Part shown: positions 1,177-18,126 of the stretch, piece after piece
Layout: the number at the start of each line of letters is the position of its first letter
Position numbering within the stretch: position 1 is the first letter of the stretch
Source: Dehalococcoidia bacterium
Lineage (GTDB): Bacteria > Chloroflexota > Dehalococcoidia > UBA2979
DNA: 64,000 nt
Direction of reading: 5' to 3'
Assembly (NCBI GenBank): GCA_965219085.1
Contig: OZ244720.1
Location: 2,624,001 to 2,688,000, forward strand
Program-made: the position numbers and the translations under genes
Notes under the pieces: generated by a model
The model's input: the letters and a program-made list of their open reading frames with translations, nothing else
Database searches by the model: none
What the model was told of the DNA's origin: nothing

Positions 1177-1183
1177 CGGGTCG

Positions 1184-2252: not shown

Positions 2253-2277
2253 ATGCGACCACGACCGCAGCGCACGG

Positions 2278-3147
2278 CTACGCCCACCAGATCCCGAGCG
2301 TGAGGAGACGGCGCAGGCGGCGCAGCCACTGCGCCCGGCGGCGCTCGCCGCGGACGCGCTCGAGCGTCCGTTCGCGCCAGCGCAGCTGCGCCCGCCGCGT
2401 CAACCCGTCCCAGCGGTAACTCTGCGGCGGCAGCGCGAGTTCGTGGTTGCCGATGAGCGCGATCTCCAGCTCGCGCAGGCGCTCCCCGTCGCGCAGCCAG
2501 TCCACGCCCCGCCCTGCGGCGGGATGACGTGCGCGTACGGCCCGCCACTCCTCGACGAGCGGCCAGGCCGGGCCGTAGGCGCGCTCGTCGTCCGGCCCGG
2601 CCTCCTCCGTCACGACCGTGGGAGACGCCGTCGGCGGGCGAACGGGAGCGGACGTCGGCCTGACGGCGATGCGGGGCGCGCCCCGGTCCGGCGCGGGCGC
2701 CCCGCCGGAACGCGGGGTCTCGACCGCCGTGAGCTGCTGCTCGCTGTCCGCCAGCCGTTCCCCATGCTCGTGCCGGAGCTGTTCCACCGTGTCCGCCAGC
2801 GCCTGCACGGCGTCCGTGGCGCCGCGCACCTCGCCGGCCGTGCCATCGATGCCGTCCGGAGGAGCCTCGGACCCGGCTCCGCCATCGTCCGACGGGGCCG
2901 GCGTCGCCGTGGGCGGCAGGGCCGCGCCGCGTTCCAGCGCCTTTGTGAGCAGGGCCTCTCGCAGCCGCACCTTGAGCGGGCCCGGTTCGTCGAGGGCGCG
3001 CGCCAGCGTCTTGTAGTTGACCCCCAGCGCATCCGCCGCCCGCATCCGTCCCTGCTCCGCCACGAGCTCGTGCAGGAACGCCCGCAGCCGCCCCTCGTAG
3101 GGCTGTTCCGACTCCTCCGGGGCCTGTTGCCGGCTTGTCTCGTCCAT
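2278..3147 (-). CDS. Hypothetical ICE protein with N-terminal HTH and coiled coil
   Basis: GRMRAADALGVNYKTLARAL HTH-like motif; GGGAGG RBS before ATG 3147. Confidence 0.65.
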   Translation of the reverse strand: MDETSRQQAPEESEQPYEGRLRAFLHELVAEQGRMRAADALGVNYKTLARALDEPGPLKVRLREALLTKALERGAALPPTATPAPSDDGGAGSEAPPDGIDGTAGEVRGATDAVQALADTVEQLRHEHGERLADSEQQLTAVETPRSGGAPAPDRGAPRIAVRPTSAPVRPPTASPTVVTEEAGPDDERAYGPAWPLVEEWRAVRARHPAAGRGVDWLRDGERLRELEIALIGNHELALPPQSYRWDGLTRRAQLRWRERTLERVRGERRRAQWLRRLRRLLTLGIWWA

Positions 3148-3461: not shown

Positions 3462-4082
3462 ATGCGACGGCAACCGAGAACCACCACCAATAGAACGAGG
3501 AGACTGCGGGCGCTGGCGGCGGCGCTGCTGCTGGCGGCGCTGGCGGCGATCCCCTCGAGCGGCACCGCCCTCGCCCAGGAGCCGCCCGCGGGCGACGGCA
3601 TCGTGCTCGTCAACGAGGCCGCCGAGGATCTCGTCGAGCGCAAGGACGACGGACGCTTCATCGCCCGTCCCGTCTTCGACCGCGAGGTCCCACTCCTCTA
3701 CTACGGCGTGCGCGAGGGCGACACGGGCGAGTGGGTCACCGTCGTTTTCCGGGTGCGCGACGACGGCGAGGAGCGGCGCGACGGTCACGAGTACTCCTTC
3801 GAGTACCCCTTCGAGAACGGCCAGCCCGAGCTCGACCCGGACCGCCCCTACCTGCTGGTGATGCTCGCGGGCGAGCTGGCGGAGTCGCCACAGCCCTTCT
3901 ACGCCGTCATCCCGCCTCACCAGCCGGGGGGCCTCTGGAACAAGGTCCTCGGAGCGCTCGAACCCGAGCGCTGGGGCAAGGCCGTCGCCCGCTGGGTGAT
4001 CGAGGGCGCGCACGGGACGCTCTGCGGCGTCGTCGAGCGCGCCTCCGGCGCAGACGCCGATACCTGCGAGGCCACCCCGTGA
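3462..4082 (+). CDS. Secreted hypothetical protein, first gene of the transfer operon
   Basis: Signal peptide ending ALA-QEP; GAGGAG RBS; stop overlaps next start. Confidence 0.7.
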   Translation: MRRQPRTTTNRTRRLRALAAALLLAALAAIPSSGTALAQEPPAGDGIVLVNEAAEDLVERKDDGRFIARPVFDREVPLLYYGVREGDTGEWVTVVFRVRDDGEERRDGHEYSFEYPFENGQPELDPDRPYLLVMLAGELAESPQPFYAVIPPHQPGGLWNKVLGALEPERWGKAVARWVIEGAHGTLCGVVERASGADADTCEATP

Positions 4083-5065
4083 GCGACATCTTCACGGGCA
4101 CTCCGCCCGGCCTCACCTATGATCACGAGATCGTCCGCCAGGCGTGGACGGCGGTCTGGATCATCACCTCGGGTGCGCTCGTCGTGATCATCGGCTGGAT
4201 GGGGCTGAGCCTCATCGTCGGAGACCACCTCGGCCGCGCACAGGCGGGCTGGCGCGAGTTGGTCCCGCGCCTCGGGCTCGGGCTCGTGGCTGCCGCCGCC
4301 TCGCTCTGGTGGTGCGCGCTCGTCATCGACGTGGCCGACGCGGTGTCAGGGTTCGTGGCCGCCGAGCTGGGCGTCACCGCCAGCGACATGCTGCGCTCGA
4401 CGCTGCGCACGCTGCTGACCGCGGTGGCGGCGGGCAGCGTGGGCATGGCCCTGGTCCTGGCGCTGCTCTACCTCGTCTACGGCTTCTTCGTGCTCTACCT
4501 CGTGGTGCAGATGGTGCTGCGCCTCGCGCTGATCGACATCCTGCTCGCGCTCGCGCCGATCGCCCTCGGGCTGTGGATCCTCCCGCACACCGCGGGCTGG
4601 GGCCGGCACTGGCTGCGGCTCTTCATGACGACCGTCTTCCAGCAGGCGATCCAGCTCGTCGCGCTGGCGCTGGGCATCTCCTTCCTCAACGAGTTCGCGT
4701 CGATCGGCGCCGGCGAACCCGTACAGGAACTCGTCTGGAAGCTGCTGATGTCGCTCGCCTTCATCTACCTGGCGACGCGCGTGCCCTCGATGCTCGGCAA
4801 CACCGGGACCTTCGACGCCTGGCTGCACACCCTCTACTTCGGCATGTCCCTGCCCGGCTCGATGGTCCGCTCGGCGCGCTCCGTGGGACTGCTCGCGGGC
4901 GGCGGTGCGGCGGGCGGCCCGGTGGGCGCGGCGGTTGCCGCCGGGGCAGCAGGCGGCGTGGCCTCGGCGGCCACCTCGGGCGTGCGCTCGGCGGCCGATA
5001 TGGCAACCCCCTCCTCGGGCGGCGGCGCCGCCGGTGGCGGCGCCCCCCGGAGCAGCAGCGAGTAA
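4079..5065 (+). CDS. VirB6/TrbL-like polytopic T4SS membrane protein
   Basis: Multiple TM helices, LRLALIDILLALAPIALGLWILP..WGRHWLR motif, Gly/Ala-rich tail; GTG start coupled to upstream TGA. Confidence 0.75.
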   Translation: MSDIFTGTPPGLTYDHEIVRQAWTAVWIITSGALVVIIGWMGLSLIVGDHLGRAQAGWRELVPRLGLGLVAAAASLWWCALVIDVADAVSGFVAAELGVTASDMLRSTLRTLLTAVAAGSVGMALVLALLYLVYGFFVLYLVVQMVLRLALIDILLALAPIALGLWILPHTAGWGRHWLRLFMTTVFQQAIQLVALALGISFLNEFASIGAGEPVQELVWKLLMSLAFIYLATRVPSMLGNTGTFDAWLHTLYFGMSLPGSMVRSARSVGLLAGGGAAGGPVGAAVAAGAAGGVASAATSGVRSAADMATPSSGGGAAGGGAPRSSSE

Positions 5066-5209
5066 CCGAACCACAACGAGAACAAGGAGGCGCGGTGTGT
5101 CGCGCCGTTCGGAGAGAACACCGGAGGTGAGAGATGTGCCGGTAGGCGAACGAGCAGCAGCACCGAGAGACGAACGAGCACACGCAAACGCGAGAGGAGC
5201 GAAACACAA

Positions 5210-5497
5210 GTGGAAGACCTGACTCAGACCATCTCCAACCTGGTGGGCATCCTGCTGGGCGTCGTCGGCGCGATCGGCGTCGGCTTCTTCATCTACGGGT
5301 CCTACCTCTACCTCACCGCCTCGGGCGCACCGCACCAGATGGAGCGCGGCAAGAGCGCGATGATGACCGCTTTGGCCGGCATCGTGCTGGCGATGGTGGC
5401 CTTCGGCGTCGTCGAGCTGGTGATGGACGCCGTCGTCAACCCCGTCGTGGATGTCGACGTCCCCGAGCCCACGGGCGCGGGTTCGTCGGAAGGATAG
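5210..5497 (+). CDS. TrbC/VirB2-like pilin
   Basis: Two hydrophobic helices around YLTASGAPHQMERGKS. Confidence 0.75.
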   Translation: MEDLTQTISNLVGILLGVVGAIGVGFFIYGSYLYLTASGAPHQMERGKSAMMTALAGIVLAMVAFGVVELVMDAVVNPVVDVDVPEPTGAGSSEG

Positions 5498-5506
5498 GGG
5501 GACGTC

Positions 5507-7240
5507 ATGCGAGAGCACGAGGTTCCAACCCACGTGCAGGCCGAGGACCGCGTCCTGCTGTGGTTCACCTTCCCCCAGATCGTGGCGATGACGGCAGTCT
5601 GCGCCCTCGCCTACGGCGTCTACCGCTACGCCCCGCTCGGTCCGTCCGAGGTACGCATGGCCGCGGCCGTGCTCTTCGGACTGGCCGGACTGGCGGTCGT
5701 CGCGGGGCGGATCGGAGGCAGGCGGCTGCCGCTGGTGGCGGCCGACCTGCTGCGGTTCGGACTGGGCGCGCGGCGCTACGCCGGGCCTCCAGCCCAGTTG
5801 GTGCGGAGCGAACCACCCGCAGCCGCGCAGCCAGCATCGAGCGGCGCCAGGCCACGGCGGCTGCTGGCGCGTCGCATACGGCGCGTCGTGCGCCGCCGCT
5901 CAAGGAAGCGGAAGGAGGGTGAGCGCCGCAACGGGCGGATGCCCTTTCGTCCGCACCGCATCTTCGGCAAGCGCCGGCGGCAGGGCGGCGAGGAGCCCGC
6001 TGAGGCGCAACGGCCGGCGACGCAGGAGCGCGGCGGGCGGCGTCTCGGACGCTGGCGCGTGCTCCCGGCGGTCGCCGTCCTGGCGGTCGCCCTCGCCGCC
6101 ACGCCGCTGCTCCCGGCGCTGGCCCAGGAGCCGGGCGGGGAGGGCTGGTTTTCGGAGGAGATCGAGTTCCAGCCTCCGCCGCTGGTCCCCGGACGACGGC
6201 TCTTCGTCGAGGGGCTCACGGTCGGCGGCGAACAGGCAGCGGTCACGCTGCGGGCCGCCACGGACCTGGACCTGACGGTGCGGGCCTACGGCGGTCCGGA
6301 CGGACGGTCGCTCCGCTTCTTCGGGACGGCCGCCCTCGAGCAGGGCGAGCGCAGCGAGTACGACCTGCCGCTGCACGGCCCCTCGCCCTCGCTCGTCTTC
6401 TCCTGGGAGGACGAGCTGGGCCAGGCCGGGGCCGTCAGCCTCGGTGGCGAGCGGCTCCCGTGGCCGCTGCCCGCGGTGGCGGGCGAGCTGTGCGTCCTGC
6501 GCGTCGTCTCGCTCGGCTGGAGCGCGGGCGCCGTCGAGGGGGCGATCAGCTCGGAGTGCGTGAGCACCACCGAGGAAGCGGTCGTTCTCCAGACGGTCGC
6601 CGGGCACGCCGACGTGACCGCGACGGCCCTGCTGGAAGGCGAGGTCGTTGCCGTCACCGGGACCATCACGGTCGCCGGAGACGGCCCTGCGACGAGCGTC
6701 ACGTTTGTCGCCGGCGGCGAGACCCGCTTCCGGCTCCCGGTCGCGGCGGGCGAGGCCGTCCACGCCCTCGCCATCGAGGCGGACCTGGTGGCGTCCCTCA
6801 GCGTCGCCCTGCCGCCGCTCGTGGAGCTCACCCACCACCCGCGGCGCGTCGAGCAACTCACGGAGACGGCGGAGGTGGGCATCCCGGCGTTCGGCGACAC
6901 CGTGACGGAGACGTTCACGGTCCCCAACGAGGACGGCACCGTCACTGAGCACACCGTGACGGCCAGCTGCCATGTCCCCGCGTCGACCGTCCGCCAGGAC
7001 GTCGTCTTCAGCGTCGTCCACCCCGAACGCGTCGAGGCCGAGGTGATGGCGCGGCTACCGCTCGCACGCAGCCGGGATGAGTCGCTTGCCCTGGCGCTCA
7101 GCGTCGGGGCCGACGACCCCTACGTGGCGCTGGCCGTACCCGAGCCCGAGCCGGAGCCCGATCCCGTGACGCAAACACCCGCCGAAGAGGACGAGCTGAG
7201 CGACTGGTTCGAGCAGCTCGGCTGGGAGTGGGTCTGGTGA
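5507..7240 (+). CDS. PrgI/VirB3-like N-terminus fused to a large extracellular beta-rich domain
   Basis: HEVPTHVQAEDRVLLWFTFPQ PrgI-like start with 2 TMs; internal signal-like segment; position upstream of VirB4. Confidence 0.65.
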   Translation: MREHEVPTHVQAEDRVLLWFTFPQIVAMTAVCALAYGVYRYAPLGPSEVRMAAAVLFGLAGLAVVAGRIGGRRLPLVAADLLRFGLGARRYAGPPAQLVRSEPPAAAQPASSGARPRRLLARRIRRVVRRRSRKRKEGERRNGRMPFRPHRIFGKRRRQGGEEPAEAQRPATQERGGRRLGRWRVLPAVAVLAVALAATPLLPALAQEPGGEGWFSEEIEFQPPPLVPGRRLFVEGLTVGGEQAAVTLRAATDLDLTVRAYGGPDGRSLRFFGTAALEQGERSEYDLPLHGPSPSLVFSWEDELGQAGAVSLGGERLPWPLPAVAGELCVLRVVSLGWSAGAVEGAISSECVSTTEEAVVLQTVAGHADVTATALLEGEVVAVTGTITVAGDGPATSVTFVAGGETRFRLPVAAGEAVHALAIEADLVASLSVALPPLVELTHHPRRVEQLTETAEVGIPAFGDTVTETFTVPNEDGTVTEHTVTASCHVPASTVRQDVVFSVVHPERVEAEVMARLPLARSRDESLALALSVGADDPYVALAVPEPEPEPDPVTQTPAEEDELSDWFEQLGWEWVW

Positions 7241-7554
7241 GGCGGCTCACGACCGCCCTGCTACTCGCCGGGGTCGCGCTGGTCACGACCGGCGCGGCCC
7301 CGGCCGAGGAGCGGGCCATGCTCGACGCCTTCGATGAGGCGCTTACCGCGCTGGCCTACGCCGCCGCCGGGGTCTGCGTCTTCGCGATCGCCTGGGCGGG
7401 CGTCCTGCTCATGGCCGACGGTGCCGACGAGCGTGGCGGCGGGCGCGCAAAGAGCGCCGTCTTCCTGGCCGTGGCCGGCCTCGCGCTCGTGCTGTCGGCC
7501 AAGGGCGTGGCTGCCCTGCTGCGCGCAGGCATCGTCCCCATCCCCGTCCCCTGA
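7237..7554 (+). CDS. Second TrbC/VirB2-like pilin
   Basis: Signal peptide plus two hydrophobic helices flanking DGADERGGGRAKS. Confidence 0.65.
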   Translation: MRRLTTALLLAGVALVTTGAAPAEERAMLDAFDEALTALAYAAAGVCVFAIAWAGVLLMADGADERGGGRAKSAVFLAVAGLALVLSAKGVAALLRAGIVPIPVP

Positions 7555-7573
7555 CACCCAGGAGCAGATCCCG

Positions 7574-9874
7574 ATGAGACCACTACTCGAACTCACGAAG
7601 CGCGCGGCGGCGGCCCTGCCAGGCGGGGCCGCCGCCGCGCGGGCGCCCGGAGCCGCCCGCGAGGCCACCTCGCCAGCGACCGAGACCGAAGCGGCCGTTC
7701 CGAAGCTCCCGCCCGGGCTGCCGGTCGCCTTCATGCTCTCCCACCTCGAGGAGGACGGGCCGGTGCGCCTCGATGGCGTCAAGCTCGGCGTCTGCGAGGT
7801 GCTCGGACTCGAGCTGGACGAGCCGAAGCTGGGGGCCTTCGCCGGCGCGCTCAACGCCTGCGACTTCCCGCTCCAACTGCTCGTGCGCCAGCACCCGCCC
7901 GGCCTCGGGAAGCTCCGCGAGGACCTCGAGGAGTCACAGCCGGAGGATCTGCCCCCGCGGACGGAGGCTGCCGCGGGCTCGCTGCGGCGGCTGCTCGCCG
8001 AGCTGGAGCGCCGCGACGGCATCCTCGACCGCCGCTTCTACGCCGTCTGCGAGTTCGAGCGGATTGGCGAGCTGCGGGGCCTGCTGGCGCGGGCCGGACT
8101 CTCCGTCCACCCGCTCGAGGGCCGCCAGTTGCGCATGCTGCTGCTGGCGTCGGCGCTCGGCGGCTCGCCCCGCGAGATCGACGAGGACACGCCCACCGAC
8201 GTCACGGTCAACCGCCGTGACATCCGCATCGGCGATCGCCTCGTGCGCTCCCTGCATCTCGGCAAGTGGCCGCGCTCGCTCTCCCCCGGCTTCCTCCAGA
8301 ACCTGATGTCCACGGGCGCGCCCATGGACCTCTCCCTCCACCTCGGCCCGATCCCCGCCGCGCAGGCAGCGCGCACGCTGGAGTGGCAGAAGGTGCGCTT
8401 CGAGTCGGCGCAGAGCCTCTCCTTCAAGCGGGGGCGCTCGATGTCGTCGGAGGCGGAGATCGCCCTCGAGGATGTGATGCGCCTCCGAGACGAGGTGCAG
8501 CGTGGCAGGGAGCGGCTCTTCCACGCGTCCCTCTCCGTCACGCTCCATGCTGACGACGAGGAGTCGCTCAAGGAGCTGACGCAGCGCGCGAAGGCGCACT
8601 TCGCGGCCTCGCTCGGCAAGCTCGACGCGCTTCCGTTCCGCCAGCGTGAGGGGCTGCTCTCGACGCTCCCGCTCGCGCTCAACGCCGTCGCCGTCTGGCG
8701 CACGCTCGACACCTCGTCGCTGGCGCGCCTGTACCCCTTCTCCCCGCCCGACCTCGACACCCGCGGCGGCAGCCTCTACGGCATCGACATGCGGGCCTCG
8801 TCGCCCGTCGTCTACGACCCCTGGGACGGCACCCACCTCAACGCCAACACGGCGGTGCTCGCGCGCTCGGGCTCGGGCAAGTCCTTCGCAACCAAGCTGG
8901 GCGTGCTGCGCGGCCTCTGCCGCGGTGTCACCGCCTACGTGATCGACCCCGAGGGCGAGTACGCCGACATGGCCCGCGCCGCGGGCGGACGCGTGCTCTC
9001 GCCGGGCGTCGCTGGCGAAGGGATGAACCCCTTCGTTATCGACTCGGGCGACCCCGAGGAGCTACTGCTGCGCATCGGCAGCCTCAGGCGGCTGATCGAG
9101 GTGATGATCGGGGAGTCCCTCGGCGCCGAGCGGCGCGCCGCCCTCGACCACGCCCTCGCCGCCTACTACGCACAGCCGCGCGAGCGCACCGGCTTCGGCG
9201 ACTTTTTCACGTTCCTGAAGGGCGACGAGGCCGACGGCGATCCCGGCCTCGCCAGGCTGCTGCGCCCCTTCGCCACGGGCAGCCTGCGCCACCTGCTCAC
9301 CGACGAGGGTGACGACCTGCTCACCAACGAGGCGCTGGTGACGGTCTTCGACCTGCGGCTGCTGGAGCCGGAGCTGCGCCCCGCCGCGGCGATGGTCTGC
9401 ACCGAGACGGTCTGGGCCGCTGCCGCGCGCGACCCGAAGCCCCGGCTGCTCGTGGTCGACGAGGTGTGGTCGATCATGCAGCACCCCGAGGGCGCGGCCT
9501 TCATGGTCTCGATGGCGAAGCGGGCGCGGAAGCACCGCCTGGGTTTGCAGTTCATCACCCAGGATGTGCAGGACCTGCTCTCCGAGGACCCCTCGCGCGC
9601 CATCACCGGCCACAGCGGGCGCGCTCTGCTCCAGAACGCCGCCTTCAAGCTCCTGCTCCAGCAGGACGCCGCCGCCATCTCAACCGTCGGCGACGCCTTC
9701 GACCTCCCACAGGACCTGCAGCGCTGGCTGCTCTCGTGCCCTCGTGGTGACGGCCTCCTGCTCGCCCGAGGCAACCGCTTCCCGATCCGCATCGAGGCGA
9801 CGCCCGAGGAGGCGGAAGTGATCGAGTGGCGGCCGGGCTCGCACCACCGCAAGGGGGCTGCGGCCAGCGAGTGA
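7574..9874 (+). CDS. virB4: VirB4/TrsE-like conjugal transfer ATPase
   Basis: NANTAVLARSGSGKS Walker A, VIDPEGEY, LLVVDEVW Walker B, RARKHRLGLQFITQDV. Confidence 0.9.
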   Translation: MRPLLELTKRAAAALPGGAAAARAPGAAREATSPATETEAAVPKLPPGLPVAFMLSHLEEDGPVRLDGVKLGVCEVLGLELDEPKLGAFAGALNACDFPLQLLVRQHPPGLGKLREDLEESQPEDLPPRTEAAAGSLRRLLAELERRDGILDRRFYAVCEFERIGELRGLLARAGLSVHPLEGRQLRMLLLASALGGSPREIDEDTPTDVTVNRRDIRIGDRLVRSLHLGKWPRSLSPGFLQNLMSTGAPMDLSLHLGPIPAAQAARTLEWQKVRFESAQSLSFKRGRSMSSEAEIALEDVMRLRDEVQRGRERLFHASLSVTLHADDEESLKELTQRAKAHFAASLGKLDALPFRQREGLLSTLPLALNAVAVWRTLDTSSLARLYPFSPPDLDTRGGSLYGIDMRASSPVVYDPWDGTHLNANTAVLARSGSGKSFATKLGVLRGLCRGVTAYVIDPEGEYADMARAAGGRVLSPGVAGEGMNPFVIDSGDPEELLLRIGSLRRLIEVMIGESLGAERRAALDHALAAYYAQPRERTGFGDFFTFLKGDEADGDPGLARLLRPFATGSLRHLLTDEGDDLLTNEALVTVFDLRLLEPELRPAAAMVCTETVWAAAARDPKPRLLVVDEVWSIMQHPEGAAFMVSMAKRARKHRLGLQFITQDVQDLLSEDPSRAITGHSGRALLQNAAFKLLLQQDAAAISTVGDAFDLPQDLQRWLLSCPRGDGLLLARGNRFPIRIEATPEEAEVIEWRPGSHHRKGAAASE

Positions 9875-9932
9875 CGACCCCTCGGAACCATCAGCCCCAA
9901 CCAACACAGCAACCACGAAAGGGACCCCGGCC

Positions 9933-12539
9933 ATGCGATTCAATCCATTCAAGACCATCCCCAATCGCGAGCCCGTGCTGCTGGCGGTGACGCCGCCGCG
10001 CACGGGCGAGCGCACGCTGCTCGGCGTCGAGAACCTGCTCGGCTCGATCGCCGTGCCCGAGCCCTTTTCGCTCGAACTCGCGGGCGGCGCCGACGGCGTC
10101 ACCCTGCTGGCGCGCTGCCTCGGCGAGCAGGTCGTGCGCGGCCAGATCGCCGCCCACTATCCCCAGGCACGCATCCACCAGCTCCAGCCCGAAGAGGATC
10201 CGCTCCGGCTCCGCGGGGGCGAGCAGGCCTGGAGCATGACCCTGCGCCCGAGCGGACCCGAGTACCTGCCCCTGCGCCTCTTCCGCGACGACGACCTGCT
10301 CGACGCGGGCTCCGACCCGATCCTCGCCCTGCTCGGCGCGCTCTCCGACCTCGAGGAGGACGAGCGCGTCGTCGCGCGGCTGCGGCTGCGCTCGCTCGGT
10401 CCCGACTGGTCGCGGCAGCACCAGGTCAGGGCGCACGAGCGGCCCCAGCCGGAGCGGACCGACTCCTACCAGATCAGCGAGTCGCGCCGCCACCGCGTCG
10501 AGATCGCGGGGGTGGCCGTCCTCGGTGCCGCCGTCGCCGGCGCTGCCCAGGGCTACCGCTGGTGGCAGGCGGGCGAGCAGTGGAAGACGGTCGCGCTCGG
10601 GGCGGGCATCGCCCTCACGCTCGGTGTGGCCGGCTGGGCCTGGGCGCGCTGGCAGCGCGCCCGCAACCGCGTCGTCGACCCCCTCCTGGTCAAGGAGAAG
10701 GTCTCGCGCATCGCCTTCGAGGCGGAGATCGAGGCCGTCGCCGTGCTGCCCGCCGGCGGCACCGAGGAGCGCGCGCGCGACCTGCTCGAGCCGGTGGCGG
10801 CCGCCTACCGCCACTACGACCACCCCGCGGGCGCGCGCCTGCAGGCGGGCGAGGTGCAGCCGCTGATCCCGGACCCGGCGGCGCTGCATCCCTCCCCGCC
10901 CGGCCTCTTCCGGGGGCGCAGCGTGCTCGGCGTGCGCGAGGCGGCGGCGCTCTGGCATCCGCCCGGCGCCGGGGACGAGACGCCGCTCGTCTCCCGTTCC
11001 GGGGCGAAGGTGCTGCTCCCCACGGCGCGCAGCGTCAGGGGCGGGGCGCTCGTCGGCGAGACCACGGCGGGGAGCCCCCGCGAGATCCATTTCCCCGACG
11101 ACCTGCTGCGCCGCCATCACCTCTACGTGGCGCGCACGCGCATGGGCAAGTCGACGCTCATGCAGCACCTCGTTACCCACAGGCTGCGGGAGAAGGCGGC
11201 AGGGGTCGGCGGCGACGCGATCGTCGTCGTCGACCCCCACGCCGACCTCGTCGCCGGCATCCTCGAGCACGTCCCCGAGTCCCTGGTTGGCTCCGTGCGC
11301 CTCGTCGACCTCGCGGGCAGCGGCGGCTACCCCGGCATCAACCTGCTCGACACGCACGTCTTCGCCGACCGCGACCGCACCGCCGACTCGGTCGTGCGCG
11401 TCGCGCGGGGGCTCTGGGAGCAGTGGGGGCCGCGCATGCAGTCGATCCTCGAGCAGACGGTGAAGACGCTGCACGAAGCTAACGCCCACCCCGACACGGC
11501 GGCCGAGGAGCAGAGCACCATCCTCGATGGGCTGCGCCTCCTGTCCGACGACGGCTTCCGCAGCCACGTCCTGGAGCGGGTCTCCGACCCCTTCCTGCTC
11601 GACTGGTGGGCGCGAGACTTCGGTGGCTGGCGGCGCGAGTACCGCGCCGAGGCGCTGGCGCCGGTCCAGACGCGCCTCTCCTACTACGCCTCCTCGAAGC
11701 GGGCGCGAGCGATCCTCGGCCAGGCGCGGTCCACCATCGACCTGCGCCGCACCATCCTCGACGGGGGCGTGCTGCTCGTCTCCACCGCGCAGGGCACCGC
11801 CGGGCGCGACGTCGCCGCGCTCGTGGGCGCGTCGATCCTCAACCTCGTCGATGCCGTCATCCGCGAGCAGGGCGAGCTGCCCCCGGAGCGCAGGCGCGGC
11901 GCGCTCGTCGTCGTCGACGAGATGCAGTCGATGCCGGGCGTCGACTACGAGTCGATGCTCTCGGAGCTGGGCAAGTTCGGGGCCAGCTTCGTGCTCGCCA
12001 CGCAGAGCCTCGCCAAGCTCGCCGATCTCTCACCGACGATGCGCGACACGCTGCTCGCCAACGTGGGCTGTCTCGCCATCTTCCAGGTGGCCGGCTCCGA
12101 CGCGCGCCAGCTCGTCTGGGAGCTCGACCGCGACCGCGTCTCCGAGGAGGATGTCGTCTCCCTGCCCGCGCACCACTGCTACGTGCGCGCGACCGTGGGA
12201 ACGCAGCGCATGCCCGCCTTCTCCATGGAAGTGCGCAAGCCCGACGGAGGCGACCCGGGGCGGGCCTCCCGCATCCGCGCGGACGCGGCGTCCTACCTGC
12301 TGACGGAGGAGGAGATCGCCGCCCGCCAGGCGGAGGGCCGCCGTCGCGTGGAGCAGTGGCGCGAGGCCGGCGAGGCGCTTCGCAACGGCGATGGTTCCGG
12401 GCCGGACGCGGACGCTGCTCCGGGGGAGGGCTCCGATCCGGGCACGGGCGACACCTCCGGGGAAGCAGAGCGCGGGAAGCAGTCGCGCAGCAAGCACTTC
12501 CAGCCGCCCGGCCGCAACTCCGGGAAGGCTGAGCAGTGA
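9933..12539 (+). CDS. virD4: VirD4/TraD-like coupling protein
   Basis: 2 TMs, RHHLYVARTRMGKST, VVDPHADL, VVVDEMQ, LSELGKFGASFVLATQSLAKL. Confidence 0.85.
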   Translation: MRFNPFKTIPNREPVLLAVTPPRTGERTLLGVENLLGSIAVPEPFSLELAGGADGVTLLARCLGEQVVRGQIAAHYPQARIHQLQPEEDPLRLRGGEQAWSMTLRPSGPEYLPLRLFRDDDLLDAGSDPILALLGALSDLEEDERVVARLRLRSLGPDWSRQHQVRAHERPQPERTDSYQISESRRHRVEIAGVAVLGAAVAGAAQGYRWWQAGEQWKTVALGAGIALTLGVAGWAWARWQRARNRVVDPLLVKEKVSRIAFEAEIEAVAVLPAGGTEERARDLLEPVAAAYRHYDHPAGARLQAGEVQPLIPDPAALHPSPPGLFRGRSVLGVREAAALWHPPGAGDETPLVSRSGAKVLLPTARSVRGGALVGETTAGSPREIHFPDDLLRRHHLYVARTRMGKSTLMQHLVTHRLREKAAGVGGDAIVVVDPHADLVAGILEHVPESLVGSVRLVDLAGSGGYPGINLLDTHVFADRDRTADSVVRVARGLWEQWGPRMQSILEQTVKTLHEANAHPDTAAEEQSTILDGLRLLSDDGFRSHVLERVSDPFLLDWWARDFGGWRREYRAEALAPVQTRLSYYASSKRARAILGQARSTIDLRRTILDGGVLLVSTAQGTAGRDVAALVGASILNLVDAVIREQGELPPERRRGALVVVDEMQSMPGVDYESMLSELGKFGASFVLATQSLAKLADLSPTMRDTLLANVGCLAIFQVAGSDARQLVWELDRDRVSEEDVVSLPAHHCYVRATVGTQRMPAFSMEVRKPDGGDPGRASRIRADAASYLLTEEEIAARQAEGRRRVEQWREAGEALRNGDGSGPDADAAPGEGSDPGTGDTSGEAERGKQSRSKHFQPPGRNSGKAEQ

Positions 12540-14146
12540 GGCCGGAGCGCGACCTGCTGCGCCTGCTTGCGGAGATGCCCTTCCTCGACCGGCTGGAGGC
12601 GGCCGCCGTCTCCGGTTGGTCGCGGGGCGCGGTCTACGCCGCGGTGGCCAAGCTGGAGCGTGAGGGGATGGCCGCGGCCGTCCCCCACGCCTCGGAGTTC
12701 ATCGCCCCGACGCAGCGCTACTCCCTCACGGCAGCCGGGCTGCGGCGCCTCGCGGACGCCGAGGGGACCGCCGTGGAGCAGGTGCTGCGCTCGCGGCCGG
12801 TCTCGGGGCGCTCGCGGCGCATCCTGCTGGAGCGTCTCGACGGCGTGGCCGTCACCTACCGCCTCGCCTCGGCGATCGCCGACGCGGCCTGGCCGATCCG
12901 CCTGCGCTGGTACCGGGCGGCACCAATGGACGCCGCCATCGCGCTCCCCGGCGGGCGCACCCTCGCGATCGTCCGCCAGGGCCGCACGACCGAGCGCACG
13001 GCCTTCGCCAAGCGCCTCTGGCGGCTGCGCGAGGGGCCGCGCCCGGGCGCCTACCTGCTGCTTGCACCCGACGGTGTGCGCCTGCGCCGTCTCGCCCGCC
13101 TCATGGCGGAGGCGGGGACGGTCAGCTTCCTCGCGCTGGAGCGCGACGCGGCCGCGGCGCGTGCGGGCGCGCGCATCTGGCGCACTGCGTCCGGGTCGCC
13201 CGCGCTCTCGCTGGACGAAGCGCTCGCCCTCGTCGGGCCGGGCGGCGCCTGGCCCGGCGAGCAGCCGTTGGCGCGGGTCGCGTTGCCTTCCCCGCTGCCG
13301 GACACGGAGCACGGCGCGCTCCCGCTCTGGATGCTCCCCTCCGAGCTGACGCCCGTGGACAAGCGCGCCCTCGGCCTGCTCGCCGACTGGTCCTGGCTTG
13401 CCCGCGAGCCGCTGGGCGCGCTCCTCGGCGTGGGGCGCACGCGGCTGTCGGGCGTGCTCGGGCGGCTGGACGGGCTCGGCCTCGTCCGCGCCCCGCGCGA
13501 CGGCCGGCTCGCGCTCTCGGACCGCGGGCTGGCGCTGCTCGCGCGCCGCGACCGCGCCTCGGAGGGGGACGCGAGGCGGCGCTGGAGCGCGGCGCCGCTG
13601 GACCCGCGGGCGCCGCTCGCCTGGCGCAACGTCTCCGGCAGGCGCAGCCGCCAGCTCCTTCGCAACCTCGACCACACCGCGGCCGTGCACGGCTTCCTCG
13701 CGGCGCTGACGGCGCAGGCGCGTGAGCGCGGCTGGGAGGTGGCGCAGCTCGACCCGCCCCACCGCGCGTCGCGCTACTTCCGCCACGGCGGCGGCCTGCG
13801 CTCCGTCCACCCCGACGCCTTCGGTGTCCTCCGCCGCGGCGATGCCACACGGGCCTTCTTCCTCGAGTGGGAGCGCCGCGCCGTGCGGCCCTCCACGATG
13901 GCCGCCCGCCTCGCCCCCTACCTGCGCTACTACGCCTCGCAGCGCCCCACCGACGACCACGGCGTCCGCCCCGCCGTGCTGGTCGTCTTCGACGACGAAC
14001 TCGCCGCCCACCACTTCCTGCGCGTCGCGCGGAGGGAGCTGGACCGCGCCCGCGTCGAGTTGCCCCTGCGCGTCTCGCACCGCGCGCTCATCGAACGGGA
14101 AGGGCCGCTCGAGTGCCGCTGGCGCTCTCCCGCAGGCGGCTCCTGA
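12536..14146 (+). CDS. Replication-relaxation family protein (putative relaxase), tandem wHTH + PD-(D/E)XK domains
   Basis: LDHTAAVH...VHPDAFGVL...FFLEWER...RLAPYLRY..VLVVF; coupled to the coupling-protein gene. Confidence 0.8.
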   Translation: MRPERDLLRLLAEMPFLDRLEAAAVSGWSRGAVYAAVAKLEREGMAAAVPHASEFIAPTQRYSLTAAGLRRLADAEGTAVEQVLRSRPVSGRSRRILLERLDGVAVTYRLASAIADAAWPIRLRWYRAAPMDAAIALPGGRTLAIVRQGRTTERTAFAKRLWRLREGPRPGAYLLLAPDGVRLRRLARLMAEAGTVSFLALERDAAAARAGARIWRTASGSPALSLDEALALVGPGGAWPGEQPLARVALPSPLPDTEHGALPLWMLPSELTPVDKRALGLLADWSWLAREPLGALLGVGRTRLSGVLGRLDGLGLVRAPRDGRLALSDRGLALLARRDRASEGDARRRWSAAPLDPRAPLAWRNVSGRRSRQLLRNLDHTAAVHGFLAALTAQARERGWEVAQLDPPHRASRYFRHGGGLRSVHPDAFGVLRRGDATRAFFLEWERRAVRPSTMAARLAPYLRYYASQRPTDDHGVRPAVLVVFDDELAAHHFLRVARRELDRARVELPLRVSHRALIEREGPLECRWRSPAGGS

Positions 14147-14271
14147 CCACGCCCAGAGCGTTCCCGCTCGCCACCTGGCCGCACGGATCGACCGCCGCGC
14201 GCGGGGCCTCGGCGCACGCGGCCGGGCGGCCGGCGGCAGGGGGTTACGCTAGACGGGGCAGTGCATGGGTA

Positions 14272-14290
14272 AGAACTGGCGTTCTATGAT
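14272..14290 (+). promoter_or_regulatory. LexA (SOS) box abutting a TATGAT -10 element
   Basis: AGAAC-TGGC-GTTCT matches the GAAC-N4-GTTC box of Gram-positives and Dehalococcoides; TATGAT at 14285-14290. Confidence 0.75.
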
Positions 14291-14322
14291 GGATCGGGCG
14301 GGGCCGGCCGAGGAGCGCAGAC

Positions 14323-14691
14323 ATGACCGTCGACCACGGCTACCGCTGGAAGGAGTTCGGCGCCCGCATCCGCGCGGCCCGCGAGCGCGCCGGCTTCACG
14401 CAGAAGCGCCTCGGCGAGCTCGTCGGCGTGCGCGCGCACACCGTCTGGTGCTGGGAGGCGGGGCGGATGAAGCCCAACCACGCGAACCTCGCGGAAATCG
14501 CCTACCAGTGCGCGACGAGCGTGGCGCTGCTTGAGGGACGCGACGTGGTCGAGGCGGAGTTGCTGAGAGAAGCCGAAGTCTTGTTCCGCGACGCCGTCGC
14601 CGGCCTCCCCATGGAGGACATCGAGTCGATCCGCAACTACATCCGCTTCGTCAAGTCGGAGCGGCGCAGGCAACGCCGCGCCGGGAGCTGA
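14323..14691 (+). CDS. XRE-family HTH regulator
   Basis: FGARIRAARERAGFTQKRLGELVGV..HTVWCWEAGRMKP; GAGGAG RBS. Confidence 0.9.
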   Translation: MTVDHGYRWKEFGARIRAARERAGFTQKRLGELVGVRAHTVWCWEAGRMKPNHANLAEIAYQCATSVALLEGRDVVEAELLREAEVLFRDAVAGLPMEDIESIRNYIRFVKSERRRQRRAGS

Positions 14692-14722
14692 ACCGGGCGC
14701 AGCGGCGCGCGAGGGGCTGCCG

Positions 14723-15013
14723 CTACGCCGCCCGCCCGTCAGCCGCGGGCGGCGATTCCTCCTCCGAAGCCGATCCGGCGATGGCATGTCCCGCCGCCGT
14801 GAGGGTCACCGCGCGCGCCAGGCGGGGCGCACGCACGATCAGGCCCGCGCGCTCGCACGCGTCCAGCCAGTGCGCCACGTTGGAGGTGGAGGACAGCCCG
14901 GTCGCCGTCCTCAACTCGCGCACGCTCGGCGCATAGCCGTGCCTGGCCCGGTAGCGGGCGATCGCCCCGACCACCGCGCGCATCCGCTCCCGTCGCCGCC
15001 TCGAGGCGCTCAC
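14723..15013 (-). CDS. LexA DNA-binding-domain-only protein
   Basis: IARYRARHGYAPSVRELRTATGLSSTSNVAHWLDACERAGLIVRAPRLARAV; no C-terminal peptidase; GTGA overlap with upstream gene. Confidence 0.8.
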   Translation of the reverse strand: MSASRRRRERMRAVVGAIARYRARHGYAPSVRELRTATGLSSTSNVAHWLDACERAGLIVRAPRLARAVTLTAAGHAIAGSASEEESPPAADGRAA

Positions 15014-15393
15014 AGGGCGGCGCCCTTCGCGAGCGGCAGTGCCGCTCCCTGCCCGAACTCGCCGGGCGCGCCGCCGCGTACTGCCAGCTCCCACGAGCGG
15101 ACCAGACTCTCCGCTGGCGCCCCGGCCTCGTCGACGAGTAGCGCCGCGCCTGGCAGCAGGCAGGGCAGCAGGTTCCGTTCGAGGGCGAAGACGACCAGCG
15201 CGTAGAGATGGCCGGAATCGGGCGTCGTCCCGTTCCTCCAGCGCCGCAGCATGCGCGTGTCGACGCGCAGCGCGCGCGCCAGTCCCCGCCAGCTCAGCCC
15301 GGCCTCCCGCCGCAGGCGGTCGAGGCGCTCGGGGAAGTCCGGCGGAAAGCGTGACGGCTCAACGTGGTAGACGTGCTGCTGGCGGCGTCCCAT
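15010..15393 (-). CDS. XRE-like HTH protein
   Basis: FPERLDRLRREAGLSWRGLARALRVDTRMLRRWRNGTTP. Confidence 0.8.
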   Translation of the reverse strand: MGRRQQHVYHVEPSRFPPDFPERLDRLRREAGLSWRGLARALRVDTRMLRRWRNGTTPDSGHLYALVVFALERNLLPCLLPGAALLVDEAGAPAESLVRSWELAVRGGAPGEFGQGAALPLAKGAAL

Positions 15394-15686
15394 CAGCGCC
15401 TCCGCTCCGGGCGCACGACGATCAGCTCCTCGCCCAGCAGTGCGCCCAGGCCCCCGGGCACCCGCGTCGCGAGCCGCACCAGCGAGAGCATCGCCCCGCC
15501 GCCGGGCGAGGCGCCCTGCCGCCAGCGCCAGAGCTGGCGGGGGTCCACGCCCAGGCAGACCGCCATCCGCTCCCAGGGCAGCCCGGTCAGTTCCTTGATC
15601 GCCACGAGCCGCGCCGCGAAGTCCTCGGGCAGGAGCGCCACGCCGGGCAGGAAGGCCGTCTCGGGGGCCGTCGGCGCCCTACTCAT
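15393..15686 (-). CDS. XRE-like HTH protein, paralogue of neighbour
   Basis: FAARLVAIKELTGLPWERMAVCLGVDPRQLWRWRQGASP. Confidence 0.75.
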   Translation of the reverse strand: MSRAPTAPETAFLPGVALLPEDFAARLVAIKELTGLPWERMAVCLGVDPRQLWRWRQGASPGGGAMLSLVRLATRVPGGLGALLGEELIVVRPERRR

Positions 15687-15942
15687 CGGGCTCATCCTCG
15701 TCGGACTCATCGGGGTGCACCACGTAGAAGAGATCGTCGAAGCGCGCGTGCAGCACGCGCAGCATGCTCTCGCGCAGCCCGGCGGAGGCGCGCCGGCGCC
15801 CGTTCAGCACCAGCGAGATGTAGCCCGAGGAGCGGCCGACCGCTCGCGCGAAGCCGTTCTGCGTCAGGTTGAGGCGCACCATTCGCTCCCAGACGGCCTC
15901 GGCCCTGACCTCGACCGTGGGGCGGGCGACTCTACTCGGCAT
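15679..15942 (-). CDS. Cro/XRE-like HTH protein
   Basis: LNLTQNGFARAVGRSSGYISLVLNGRR; GGGGAGGG RBS. Confidence 0.8.
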   Translation of the reverse strand: MPSRVARPTVEVRAEAVWERMVRLNLTQNGFARAVGRSSGYISLVLNGRRRASAGLRESMLRVLHARFDDLFYVVHPDESDEDEPDE

Positions 15943-16138
15943 GCTCGCCCTCCCCGGCGGCCGCATCGCGGTCCGCTTCGTCGGACGGAAACGCGCCGTT
16001 GGGCCCCGTGCCGCCGCGGGCGGTCGAGGCGAGGTGGGCGCGCACGATCAGCCGCGCGAGGGCGCGCAGGCCGCGCAGCCGCTGCTCGTCCTGCTCCTTG
16101 GTGAGTTGCCGGGGGGTCGTCGTCCGGGGGGTTCGCAT
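15932..16138 (-). CDS. Small hypothetical protein
   Basis: LTKEQDEQRLRGLRALARLIVRAHL helix; first gene of the coupled leftward operon. Confidence 0.55.
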   Translation of the reverse strand: MRTPRTTTPRQLTKEQDEQRLRGLRALARLIVRAHLASTARGGTGPNGAFPSDEADRDAAAGEGEHAE

Positions 16139-16180
16139 CGTGGCATCCGCATGGCTGGTCTGGGGGAGTACCCCTGTGTA

Positions 16181-16194
16181 AGTACGTACGTTCT
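16181..16194 (-). promoter_or_regulatory. LexA-box-like site upstream of the HTH operon
   Basis: Minus strand AGAAC-GTAC-GTACT (one mismatch to GAAC-N4-GTTC). Confidence 0.6.
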
Positions 16195-16294
16195 GTTATC
16201 GTGACAATAGCAGCGAGGCAGGCGCGCCGACAACGAGATCCGAGCCTAATTCGGCCCGGATCTCCTAAATCGCTTGCTGCAATGTGACAGAAGG

Positions 16295-16308
16295 CGAACA
16301 ACTGTACG
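16295..16308 (+). promoter_or_regulatory. LexA-box-like site upstream of the integrase
   Basis: CGAAC-AACT-GTACG; TACCAT -10-like at 16320-16325. Confidence 0.55.
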
Positions 16309-16368
16309 CCTCGGCGCGCTACCATGTGACCAGCGAACACAGACTCCCCGCCTGTCAGGAAGCGACCG

Positions 16369-18042
16369 ATGCCCGACCAACAGCCCGATCTCAAGCCCGC
16401 CGCCCTCTACGCCCGCGTCTCCAGCGACCGCCAGGACGTCGACCTCTCCGTCTCCGCCCAGCTGCGCGCGCTCCGCGACTTCGCCGAGAAGAACAATTAC
16501 CTTGTCGTCCGCGAGTATGTCGACGAGGCCGAGAGCGGGCGCGTCGCCGACCGCCCGCAGTTCCGGCAGATGCTCGATGCGGCCGGCAGCGACGACGCGC
16601 CCTTCGAGGAGATCCTCGTCTGGAAGTTCTCGCGCTTCACCCGCAAGCGCGAGCACGCCGTCGCCTTCAAGTCGATGCTGCGCCGCCGCGGCATCCGCGT
16701 CGTCTCCATCACCGAGCACGCCGACGACTCCCCCACCGGCAAGCTCATGGAGGCGATCATCGAGAGCGTCGACGAGTTCTATTCGGAGAACCTGGCGCAG
16801 GAGGTCATGCGCGGTCTGCGCGAGTCGGCTTCACGCGGCTTCTGGGTCGCCCCGCGCGCGCCTTACGGCTACCGCAGGGTCCAGGTGCAGGACGGCCCTA
16901 GGACGCGACCGAAGCTGGAGTTGAATCCGCCCGCCGACGGCATGGTCCGCCGCATCTTCGAGATGGCTCTGCAGGACCGGAGCGTCCTCGAGATCAGCAA
17001 GACGTTCAACGCCGAGGGCATCCCCAGCCCGGCAGGCAAGCGCTGGAACAAGACGACTATCCACCAGATGCTCGCCAACGAGACCTATACGGGAACCTTG
17101 CTCTGGGGCGTCACGGCCAAAGACGGGCTCCCACCCGTGCGTGTCGAGGATGCGTTCCCCGCCATCGTCTCCCGGAAGGAGTTCCAGGAGGTCGCGGGCC
17201 TGCTGCGTGCGAAGGCGCCGGCGCAGGTACATCCGCGTCGCGCCGGGAGCCCATATCTGCTGAGCGGGCTCGTGAAGTGCCGGCGCTGCCGCCGAGCGCT
17301 CACGGCAGCCGAGGCGAAGAGCGGCAAGTACACCTACTACGTCTGCCAGTCGCTGTTGAAGCGAGGCAGCGGTACCTGCGAGACCCCGCGGCTCAACGCG
17401 CAGCACTTCGAGCGGCTGATCATCGAGCAGATTCGGGAGCACATCCTCACCGAGTCCAACATCCGCGACCTCGTGCGGCTCGTTGACGAGGAGATGGACG
17501 GCGTAGCGCGCGAGGAGCGTGCGAAACTCGAGACCACCGAGGCCGAGCTGGCCGAGGTGCGCAGCAAGATGGACCGGCTGTGGCACGCCGTCGAGACCTC
17601 CGATCTGGAGGTCAACGACATCTTGCCCCGCCTGAGGCAGCACCAGGAGCGCCAGGAGCGCCTCGAGACGGCGGCGGCGGATGCGCGCAGGGCGCTCTCG
17701 GAGCGCCGCGTGGCGCTGGACAGCGTCGAGACCATCACCGCCTTCGCTCGAGAGATGAGCGAGTTCCTGCGGACCAGTAAACTCACCGAGTCGAAGACGT
17801 TCATCCGCTCCTTTGTGAAGGAGATCGCCGTCAAGCCCGGGACGGCGACGATCCGGTACACCATCCCGACGCCGCCGGACAGCCCCATCGGTGGGGGAGA
17901 TGCTGCGGAGATCGAGTTGCCCGAGGCAGTTCGCAGTACAGTCAGCTATGGCTGCCGGGGGAGGAATCGAACCTCCATCAAGGGATCCAAAGTCCCCTGT
18001 GCTACCGTTGCACCACCCGGCACCGCTGCGGATCCAGTCTAG
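16369..18042 (+). CDS. Large serine recombinase (integrase)
   Basis: ALYARVSSDRQ catalytic motif, WKFSRFTR, PYGY recombinase domain, YLLSGLVKCRRC...YYVC Zn ribbon, coiled coil. Confidence 0.95.
   Translation: MPDQQPDLKPAALYARVSSDRQDVDLSVSAQLRALRDFAEKNNYLVVREYVDEAESGRVADRPQFRQMLDAAGSDDAPFEEILVWKFSRFTRKREHAVAFKSMLRRRGIRVVSITEHADDSPTGKLMEAIIESVDEFYSENLAQEVMRGLRESASRGFWVAPRAPYGYRRVQVQDGPRTRPKLELNPPADGMVRRIFEMALQDRSVLEISKTFNAEGIPSPAGKRWNKTTIHQMLANETYTGTLLWGVTAKDGLPPVRVEDAFPAIVSRKEFQEVAGLLRAKAPAQVHPRRAGSPYLLSGLVKCRRCRRALTAAEAKSGKYTYYVCQSLLKRGSGTCETPRLNAQHFERLIIEQIREHILTESNIRDLVRLVDEEMDGVAREERAKLETTEAELAEVRSKMDRLWHAVETSDLEVNDILPRLRQHQERQERLETAAADARRALSERRVALDSVETITAFAREMSEFLRTSKLTESKTFIRSFVKEIAVKPGTATIRYTIPTPPDSPIGGGDAAEIELPEAVRSTVSYGCRGRNRTSIKGSKVPCATVAPPGTAADPV
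17949..18022 (-). tRNA. tRNA-Gln: tRNA-Gln(TTG), ICE integration target
   Basis: TGCCGGGTGGTGCAACGGTAGCACAGGGGACTTTGGATCCCTTGATGGAGGTTCGATTCCTCCCCCGGCAGCCA folds into a cloverleaf with encoded CCA. Confidence 0.95.
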
Positions 18043-18126
18043 GCAACCGGCCCCTCCCGGCGATAGCCTGATAGGTGAAGGCGGCACGCTCGAGCTGCCG
18101 TCGCACTGCGCATGGGAGGCCTCACC

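Follow-up and report, generated by a model that had tools for sequence, protein, structure and literature searches.

The window analysed here, a stretch of 64,000 nucleotides (nt) from a Dehalococcoidia bacterium (assembly GCA_965219085.1, contig OZ244720.1, positions 2,624,001 to 2,688,000), covers the right-hand part of an integrative conjugative element (ICE). The regulatory module of this element consists of an XRE-type helix-turn-helix (HTH) gene and a five-gene HTH operon whose last gene encodes a LexA DNA-binding domain without the rest of LexA (mini-LexA). Two LexA-type boxes lie in front of these two units, match the boxes of the host's own SOS genes and recur at the same places in related elements. 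On this sequence evidence we regard it as fairly probable that host LexA directly controls the module.

In an undamaged cell, host LexA would sit on boxes 1 and 2 and keep the XRE gene and the operon shut. DNA damage would then lead, through RecA-stimulated self-cleavage of LexA, to the release of both promoters, and the cascade of HTH regulators would be made only during the SOS response. Mini-LexA would act together with the XRE protein as a second-tier regulator like gp6 of the Bacillus thuringiensis phage GIL01, would probably be short-lived through its Ala-Ala end, and may read either the LexA boxes or some separate site. Should host LexA prove to be the master repressor across these elements, gene transfer in Dehalococcoidia, a largely uncultured class, would be driven directly by DNA damage.

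The boxes and the host SOS regulon

Three candidate boxes and one promoter-like hexamer were read in the window.

14272..14285, unstranded: box 1, AGAAC-TGGC-GTTCT, in the XRE promoter region (20.2 bits, rank 15)
14285..14290, plus strand: TATGAT, a -10-like hexamer whose first T is the last base of box 1
16181..16194, unstranded: box 2, AGTAC-GTAC-GTTCT, 44 nt upstream of orf68 (start 16138; 23.4 bits, rank 3)
16296..16307, unstranded: box 3, GAAC-AACT-GTAC, 62 nt before the integrase ATG (16369); doubtful (9.7 bits, rank 248)

An earlier note on this DNA had described AGAAC-N4-GTTCT abutting the TATGAT of the XRE gene and GAAC-N4-GTAC variants upstream of the HTH operon and of the integrase, and both descriptions are accurate, box 2 showing the variant in its minus-strand reading. 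The arrangement of box 1 and TATGAT lies 37 nt upstream of the XRE ATG (14323). Its position and the flanking sequence GTTCTATG[AC]TGG at the hexamer, which is kept in the related locus L004 and in a paralogous remnant, suggest that TATGAT (14285-14290) serves as part of a promoter, which box 1 would then overlap.

The host genome (3.31 Mb, 69.8% G+C, one contig, class Dehalococcoidia) encodes a single full-length LexA (genome 1247245-1247901), which has a LexA_DNA_bind and a Peptidase_S24 domain. Boxes of the type GAAC-N4-GT[TA]C lie 12 to about 300 bp upstream of repair and other genes, which by their Pfam identities are recA, ruvB, an IMS Y-family polymerase, a DnaE2-like polymerase, a DUF5131 gene, ribonucleotide reductase, dnaE, recQ, lexA and a DinB_2 gene. 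The recA box (ATAGAACGAGCGTTCGTA, genome position 548288) is 42 bp upstream of recA, and lexA has a box of its own (GAACATACGTAC). The host regulon thus does use the GAAC-N4-GTTC box that the earlier note had taken as known.

A palindromic matrix was built from 11 host SOS sites and scanned over the genome (about 3.3 million positions), with the training sites included in the ranking. The recA box ranked 2nd, the site at 16182 in box 2 ranked 3rd (23.4 bits), the site at 14273 in box 1 ranked 15th (20.2 bits) and the site at 16296 in box 3 ranked 248th (9.7 bits). Boxes 1 and 2 score on par with the host recA box. Because they rank 3 and 15 against the host's own SOS boxes and box 3 ranks 248, boxes 1 and 2 are well above chance and box 3 is indistinguishable from background. 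It also follows from ranks 3 and 15 under a matrix of 11 host sites that the host LexA regulon does not use some other motif, an outcome that the earlier note had named as fatal to its reading. Box 3 is probably a chance match, so that two of the "three LexA boxes" of that note stand and the third, poorly ranked and not conserved, does not.

That all of these motifs are chance matches in AT-richer intergenic DNA, with no regulatory role, is highly improbable, although this does hold for box 3 and the bare counts agree with it. The window has two copies of GAAC-N4-GTTC against 0.53 expected and two of GAAC-N4-GTAC against 0.56 expected; in each case 11 of 100 shuffles reach two, which is not significant. 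Genome-wide, the 39 sites of GAAC-N4-GTTC fall within the 10-82 found for permuted half-sites, so there is no excess. For boxes 1 and 2 the chance explanation is contradicted by their ranks of 3 and 15 and by a positional conservation with free spacers that is described below against random-window controls.

Several further sites of this kind were seen in the genome. Upstream of the DinB_2 gene (C1:2395446-2395488) there are two LexA-type boxes, one between TTGACA and TATATT and the second directly after, which is the clearest operator-in-promoter case of the host regulon. A repeat that reads CTAGAACAAA[CT]GTAC and then 12 or more consecutive C contains a GAAC-N4-GTAC motif and occurs in four genome copies (C1:666331, 690783, 704592 and 2601920), one of them about 255 bp upstream of a gene for a 3,731-aa protein. 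A weak match to the LexA matrix (AACGAAGGCGCGTTCGCG, 13.3 bits, rank 57) lies at window position 22775, outside the element.

The two boxed units contain the following genes.

14323..14691, plus strand: XRE-type HTH gene, 122 aa, with a conserved C-terminal region (HTH_31, E 1.4e-8)
14723..15013, minus strand: mini-LexA, 96 aa, last gene of the operon (PF01726 LexA_DNA_bind, E 1.3e-10, its sole Pfam match)
15010..15393, minus strand: HTH_C, 127 aa, fourth gene of the operon (HTH_3, E 7.7e-5)
15393..15710, minus strand: HTH_B, 105 aa (HTH_23, E 1.3e-3)
15679..15966, minus strand: HTH_A, 95 aa, XRE-type (HTH_31, E 3.9e-6)
15932..16138, minus strand: orf68, first open reading frame (ORF) of the operon, of no known family

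On the minus strand the five ORFs run in the order orf68, HTH_A, HTH_B, HTH_C, mini-LexA, with stops and starts overlapping; the GTG start of mini-LexA overlaps the HTH_C stop as GTGA. HTH_B is a paralogue of HTH_C (42% identical by tblastn). orf68 has no Pfam or PHROG match, and homologues of it occupy the same place in relatives. The window XRE protein has 91 homologues. The XRE and mini-LexA genes are convergent, with 31 bp between their stop codons (14692-14722) and no predicted terminator in that interval. Two LexA-boxed transcription units may therefore collide here, with transcriptional interference. The commoner layout among relatives has the XRE gene and the HTH operon diverging from one control region.

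The sole Peptidase_S24 match above cut-off in the genome is host LexA, and no Peptidase_M78/ImmA match was found within the window. The element is for these reasons without a conventional cleavable repressor, and the earlier statement that no CI/ImmA-type repressor is visible is upheld.

Conservation of the boxes in related elements and hosts

A scan for integrase relatives, with one genome per species, confirmed 591, and the best 80 loci were kept; all 80 are Dehalococcoidia/Chloroflexota metagenome-assembled genomes by title. In the three closest relatives (L004, L005 and L006) a strict box stands 165-188 bp before the integrase start, at the place of box 2, and in the alignment its half-sites are conserved while the spacers differ. 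Strict boxes at this place were also found in L009, L117, L119 and ElA, a paralogue of the element in the same genome (box at genome position 742901), and the spacers of the seven vary (GTAC, GAGC, GGAC, GGTA, TACC, ATCC). For the operon promoter, we took the 36 loci that have a minus-strand HTH_A homologue and at least 300 bp upstream of it, and recorded the best matrix match in the 400 bp upstream. This match lies at a near-constant distance and reaches at least 14 bits in 16 of the 36 loci, compared with 1.8% of 1,800 windows drawn at random from these loci. The more distant operon boxes read TTAGAA[AG]-N4-GTTCTGT, with a single mismatch confined to one of the halves.

For the XRE promoter, 401 genomes of the class were searched; 14 of them have the XRE gene, at 26 loci, which divide as follows by what stands at the position of box 1.

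GAAC-N4-GTTC: 6 loci (window, L136, L142, L145, L151, L153)
GAAC-N4-GTGC: 5 loci (L137, L139, L140, L143, L149)
AAAC-N4-GTTC: 2 loci (L138, L152)
Degenerate remnant: 4 loci (L144, L148, L150, L154)
Different upstream context, no box at XRE: 5 loci (L134, L135, L141, L146, L147)
Partial or fused XRE matches, promoter not judgeable: 4 loci (L155-L158)

A box-type motif is thus present at the XRE promoter in 13 of 26 loci, and in nine of them the 1.5 kb fetched to each side contains no mini-LexA. The conservation in related elements on which the earlier note had staked its reading is found for boxes 1 and 2 (13/26 and 16/36 loci) and fails for box 3 (2/80). Box 3 is absent from L004, L005 and L006, which do carry the operon-promoter box, and its position is not enriched: the 130 bp before the integrase contain a match of 9.7 bits or more in those two of 80 loci, compared with 1.1% of controls. 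Because L007, L008 and L082 carry GAAC-N4-GTGC 54-80 bp upstream of the integrase, there may be a weak recurrent integrase-proximal site. A different motif, like CTTGCTCC-N4-6-GTGACAG, lies upstream of the integrase (window 16198-16210 and 16283-16290) and is kept in L004, L005, L006 and ElA; it may represent the promoter of the integrase gene or a site for some other regulator.

The claim of the earlier note that host LexA directly gates excision is not borne out, given the rank of box 3, its absence from the closest relatives and its two occurrences in 80 loci. Since the integrase-proximal box is weak and unconserved, we infer LexA gating of excision, and any link to transfer, through the element's regulators.

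Boxes of this type also stand at recA or lexA in hosts that belong to three families of the class. In four of five host genomes a site of at least 18.6 bits was found, the best in the fifth (G217) being 12.7. One half of the recA box in the host G154 is GTGC, as in the XRE boxes of the elements that this host carries.

Taken together, these distributions point to a reader of the boxes that every host possesses, most simply host LexA. The boxes are independent of mini-LexA, which is present in two of the 80 integrase-anchored loci (best 80 of 591) and missing from nine of the 13 boxed XRE loci; ElA has a box and neither an XRE gene nor mini-LexA; and four of the eight XRE loci with a standalone mini-LexA have a degenerate XRE box. 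An association of strict boxes with mini-LexA was considered and rejected, as L005, L006 and ElA have strict boxes without it.

In the main rival reading, the boxes would be operators bound by HTH proteins of the element itself (XRE, HTH_A or an XRE/mini-LexA pair) in a divergent switch like that of cI and cro, their likeness to SOS boxes being mimicry or shared ancestry and host LexA having no role. The family does keep flanks of its own and a fixed asymmetry across hosts (TTAGAA[AG]-N4-GTTCTGT at the operon, GTCAAGAAC-N4-GT[TG]C at XRE), many copies are one base off the LexA consensus, and the commoner divergent layout from one control region resembles classical immunity regions. Nevertheless, the window boxes score like the host recA, dnaE2 and ruvB boxes (ranks 3 and 15), which would be unexpected for an unrelated operator. 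The motif also stands at promoters of elements that have neither XRE nor mini-LexA and at XRE promoters without mini-LexA, and the LexA motif is common to hosts of three families. We therefore consider this rival unlikely.

Direct control by host LexA remains our preferred reading, and several observations weigh against it. Five complete XRE loci have no box at the XRE promoter, and four relatives that carry a standalone mini-LexA have a degenerate one (four of eight such XRE loci). Many relatives have half-sites with one mismatch (GAAA, GAAG, GTGC, AAAC), and the asymmetric flanks of the family (GTCAAGAAC..., ...GTTCTGT) would fit an operator of an element-encoded HTH protein as well. Because the related loci share ancestry, counts across them make the evidence look more independent than it is. 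A strict scan of 14100-16420 for sigma-70 promoters and terminators called neither. No excision factor was identified in the element, and the integrase's own box is weak and unconserved.

The mini-LexA family and its possible role

Mini-LexA is a genuine LexA DNA-binding domain. It has the N-terminal winged-helix DNA-binding domain of the LexA family; the C-terminal S24 autoprotease/dimerisation domain is absent, the 96-aa chain ends after one extra helix, and the next gene is the convergent XRE gene. The earlier description of an operon ending in a LexA N-domain of about 96 aa without an autoprotease is therefore correct (14723-15013, LexA_DNA_bind E 1.3e-10, no S24). When the PDB was searched with a family profile, LexA made up nine of the ten best matches (T. 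maritima LexA 3k2z, E 1.2e-4, residues 8-72); the single mini-LexA sequence found no match there with phmmer. An AlphaFold2 model (pLDDT 79) shows three helices and a wing, the extra helix at 73-86 and a disordered tail, and its top Foldseek match is the same T. maritima structure (root-mean-square deviation 1.3 Å over 63 columns).

The protein falls in a clade of its own, with 40 standalone homologues that are 81-160 aa long. Close relatives (E < 1e-20) occur in 7 of 401 class genomes, and the weaker matches there, taken as a group, lie in open frames typical of full-length LexA. All 11 longer relatives are fusions of XRE-type HTH and LexA domains, and none of the 11 has S24 (PF00717). In L119 (4539-6155, plus strand) a 538-aa ORF reads XRE-LexA-LexA-XRE, in L009 (640-2100, minus strand) a single frame reads XRE-LexA-XRE, and the homologue P0041 has two LexA domains in one chain. 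Two LexA domains joined in tandem would in effect give such a chain a dimer of its own. The XRE part of the fusions is homologous to the separate convergent XRE gene of the window, and because of this fusion in relatives we consider that the sequences suggest a partnership of XRE and mini-LexA. Complex prediction for the two proteins returned a score of 0.00, which gives no verdict and speaks neither for nor against binding.

An Ala-Ala C-terminus, mostly GRAA, is present in 22 of 40 standalone homologues and six of 11 fusions, compared with none of the 91 XRE homologues. Throughout the family (P0001-P0051) the GRAA/RAA ending stays at the end of whichever chain has the LexA domain, and the window copy ends in GRAA (14723-14737). 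The N-terminal fragment of E. coli LexA ends in VAA and is a ClpXP substrate; host LexA reads KIAA|GAP at the expected cleavage site. By its resemblance to such ends, the Ala-Ala tail is probably a degron that makes mini-LexA short-lived. With its standalone, XRE-fused and tandem forms and its conserved Ala-Ala end, the family is a natural series on what the LexA domain does without its dimerising, self-cleaving half.

A comparison of recognition helices with host LexA, which the earlier note had proposed, gives a partial match. SSTS at the start of the helix is invariant and common to the mini-LexA family and the cellular LexAs of the class. The window copy equals host LexA at six of ten helix positions, compared with 27% identity over the whole domain, and some family members agree at eight of ten (SSTSVVAYWL versus SSTSVVDYNL in the host), with whole domains that are 27-41% identical.

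It is possible, if unlikely, that host LexA gates the element and that the same boxes are afterwards taken by mini-LexA, a RecA-insensitive repressor in this model, shutting the element off again or dampening the host SOS response. The helix start shared with host LexA despite low domain identity fits such feedback, and the tandem domains of L119 and P0041 would suit a palindromic operator. The consulted part of one study also describes an N-terminal cleavage fragment of phage CI that still represses and needs ClpX for its removal (PMC10584840). What tells against feedback is that boxes are kept in elements without mini-LexA (two of the 80 integrase loci carry it, and nine of 13 boxed XRE loci lack it) and that half of the eight XRE loci with standalone mini-LexA have lost the XRE box. 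A lone domain is without the LexA dimer interface, and the Ala-Ala tail argues for a short-lived protein and not for lasting shut-off. Moreover, gp6 of GIL01, which is 44% identical to the LexA domain of its own Bacillus host, binds a different palindrome and activates, as stated in the consulted part of its description (PMC6182141). A gp6-like second-tier role of mini-LexA with the XRE protein is at least as likely as the feedback role, although the loci compared yielded no target site for mini-LexA.

We give little credence to a composite regulator, in which mini-LexA and XRE, made once host LexA has been cleaved, would together read LexA-type half-sites as a RecA-insensitive stand-in for LexA and, in a pulse timed by the Ala-Ala end, re-close the promoters of the element and possibly those of the host SOS response. 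In this picture the XRE and LexA parts, which are separate here and joined in relatives as XRE-LexA-XRE or XRE-LexA-LexA-XRE, would form one regulator. If true, it would amount to a replacement for the SOS repressor encoded by a mobile element.

Gene content of the element and comparison with known systems

The genes and features of the element outside the regulatory module were identified as follows.

3731..14146, plus strand: transfer genes as a block (Pfam matches)
3731-5065, plus strand: TrbL/VirB6 (Pfam match)
5210-5497, plus strand: type IV secretion system pilin (Pfam match)
7334-9874, plus strand: VirB4-like ATPase, a TraG/TraC-type P-loop ATPase (Pfam match)
9933-12539, plus strand: coupling protein, TrwB-type (Pfam match)
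12536-14146, plus strand: Replic_Relax protein (PF13814; Pfam match)
16369..18042, plus strand: large serine recombinase (integrase), with Resolvase, Recombinase and Zn_ribbon_recom domains
17949..18022, minus strand: tRNA-Gln, at the right edge of the element (ARAGORN)

The transfer genes thus include both type IV secretion and coupling proteins, as expected of an ICE. In the part of the element seen, no classical MOB relaxase was identified, the Replic_Relax protein alone being found. The tail of the integrase ORF overlaps tRNA-Gln (17949-18022) in antisense, and homology to ElA reaches window position 18009, 60 nt into the tRNA; for these two reasons the sequence suggests an attachment site in tRNA-Gln, for which the region 17889-18062 of the window was considered. 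Window positions 1-2615 share homology with a paralogous element at another place in the genome, which puts the left end of the element beyond the start of the window. A search of the genome for repeats resolved no attachment repeats for the element. A 43-bp repeat of the tRNA-Gln-adjacent region at genome position 2564909 was rejected as an attachment site, as the 43-47-bp repeats (genome 746297-746343 and 2564909-2564951) are the 3' ends of paralogous integrase genes. Four contig-only sequencing runs of one study, possibly the assembly's own source, have exact contigs over 13936-14400 and 16040-16424; no informative joints or element ends were seen in them. A search for sequencing runs that cover the locus listed no RNA run.

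The genome carries three more copies or remnants of the family. ElA (C1:727201-746409) looks complete over the stretch compared; its integrase is 89% identical to that of the window, and, as noted, it has no XRE or mini-LexA. In ElB (2556720-2564949) the genes for the coupling protein and the Replic_Relax protein are both split, and the integrase is frameshifted. EL2 (837192-840516) has kept the HTH operon, with a mini-LexA 70% identical to that of the window, but the intergenic region and some 20 codons at the start of the integrase are gone, and the XRE gene carries a frameshift.

The closest known system appears to be GIL01, a tectivirus of Bacillus thuringiensis. In the consulted part of its description, this phage has no repressor of its own, and host LexA together with gp7 holds the promoters P1 and P3. 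The early unit under LexA control also yields gp6, a shortened LexA homologue that comprises the DNA-binding domain; this protein recognises another palindrome and switches on the late promoter (Fornelos et al. 2018, PMC6182141). The likeness, as far as that part goes, is that a mobile element without a dedicated cleavable repressor has LexA boxes in its early or regulatory promoters and encodes a LexA DNA-binding domain on its own within a LexA-controlled unit, the control being predicted here from the box. Unlike GIL01, a linear plasmid-like phage of Firmicutes, the present element is an ICE of Chloroflexota with type IV secretion and a serine integrase, and no partner like gp7 was identified in it. 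Unlike gp6, as described there, the mini-LexA family also has XRE-fused and tandem forms and mostly ends in Ala-Ala; and the activator role and distinct site of gp6 were shown experimentally, whereas mini-LexA is known from its sequence. Mini-LexA matches phrog_3502 (E 1.6e-11) and PHROG 362. When it was compared by tblastn with 50,697 phage records, in a search that did not include gp6 directly, 12 records matched, none of them a Bacillus phage or tectivirus, and for this reason the truncation of LexA is probably independent of that in GIL01. If our preferred reading is true, the GIL01 strategy of a borrowed host LexA combined with a truncated one arose independently in a conjugative element of another phylum. 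Among the 12, the "LexA-like DNA binding domain protein" of mycobacteriophages (for example phage Cosmo gene 13) is 40% identical over 55 residues; these proteins are distant and uncharacterised, with no link to LexA boxes known from the literature examined.

Literature searches for ICEs with LexA boxes gave nothing on point, as judged by titles and abstract openings. Those for truncated LexA found the GIL01 paper (PMC6182141) alone, and those for LexA control of a mobile element in Dehalococcoides found none.

Parallels exist in mobile elements that let the SOS repressor of the host itself serve as sensor for the release of their genes. Host LexA boxes are known on operon I of SaPI, CTX-phi, the tum gene of coliphage 186, integron integrases and colicin operons. 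ISCR and SCCmec are further examples, as described in the parts of the sources consulted. In most of these, LexA acts on one accessory promoter beside a repressor of the element, whereas here boxes stand on both core regulatory promoters and there is no element-encoded cleavable repressor.

SXT/R391, with the cI-like SetR, and ICEBs1, with ImmR/ImmA, are SOS-responsive ICEs that have their own cleavable or degradable repressor. They share with the present element, as we read it, DNA damage as the cue for ICE activation, and ICEBs1 shows that an ICE can damp the host SOS response. Unlike them, this element has no S24 repressor or ImmA-type protease, and sensing would pass to host LexA. In the consulted part of its description, ICEBs1 modulates the host SOS response through RamT and RamA (PMC11841131), which act on RecA filaments and are not LexA-like.

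The fragments left by cleavage of LexA and CI offer another comparison. A 2003 study by Neher et al. reportedly dealt with the N-terminal cleavage fragment of LexA and its removal by ClpX/ClpXP. Like the LexA and CI fragments, mini-LexA consists of the DNA-binding domain and has an Ala-Ala-type C-terminal end (GRAA, against KIAA at the cleavage site of host LexA), as far as the consulted part of the source on such fragments describes them (PMC10584840). Unlike them, mini-LexA is encoded by its own gene, and its degradation is predicted from the tail.

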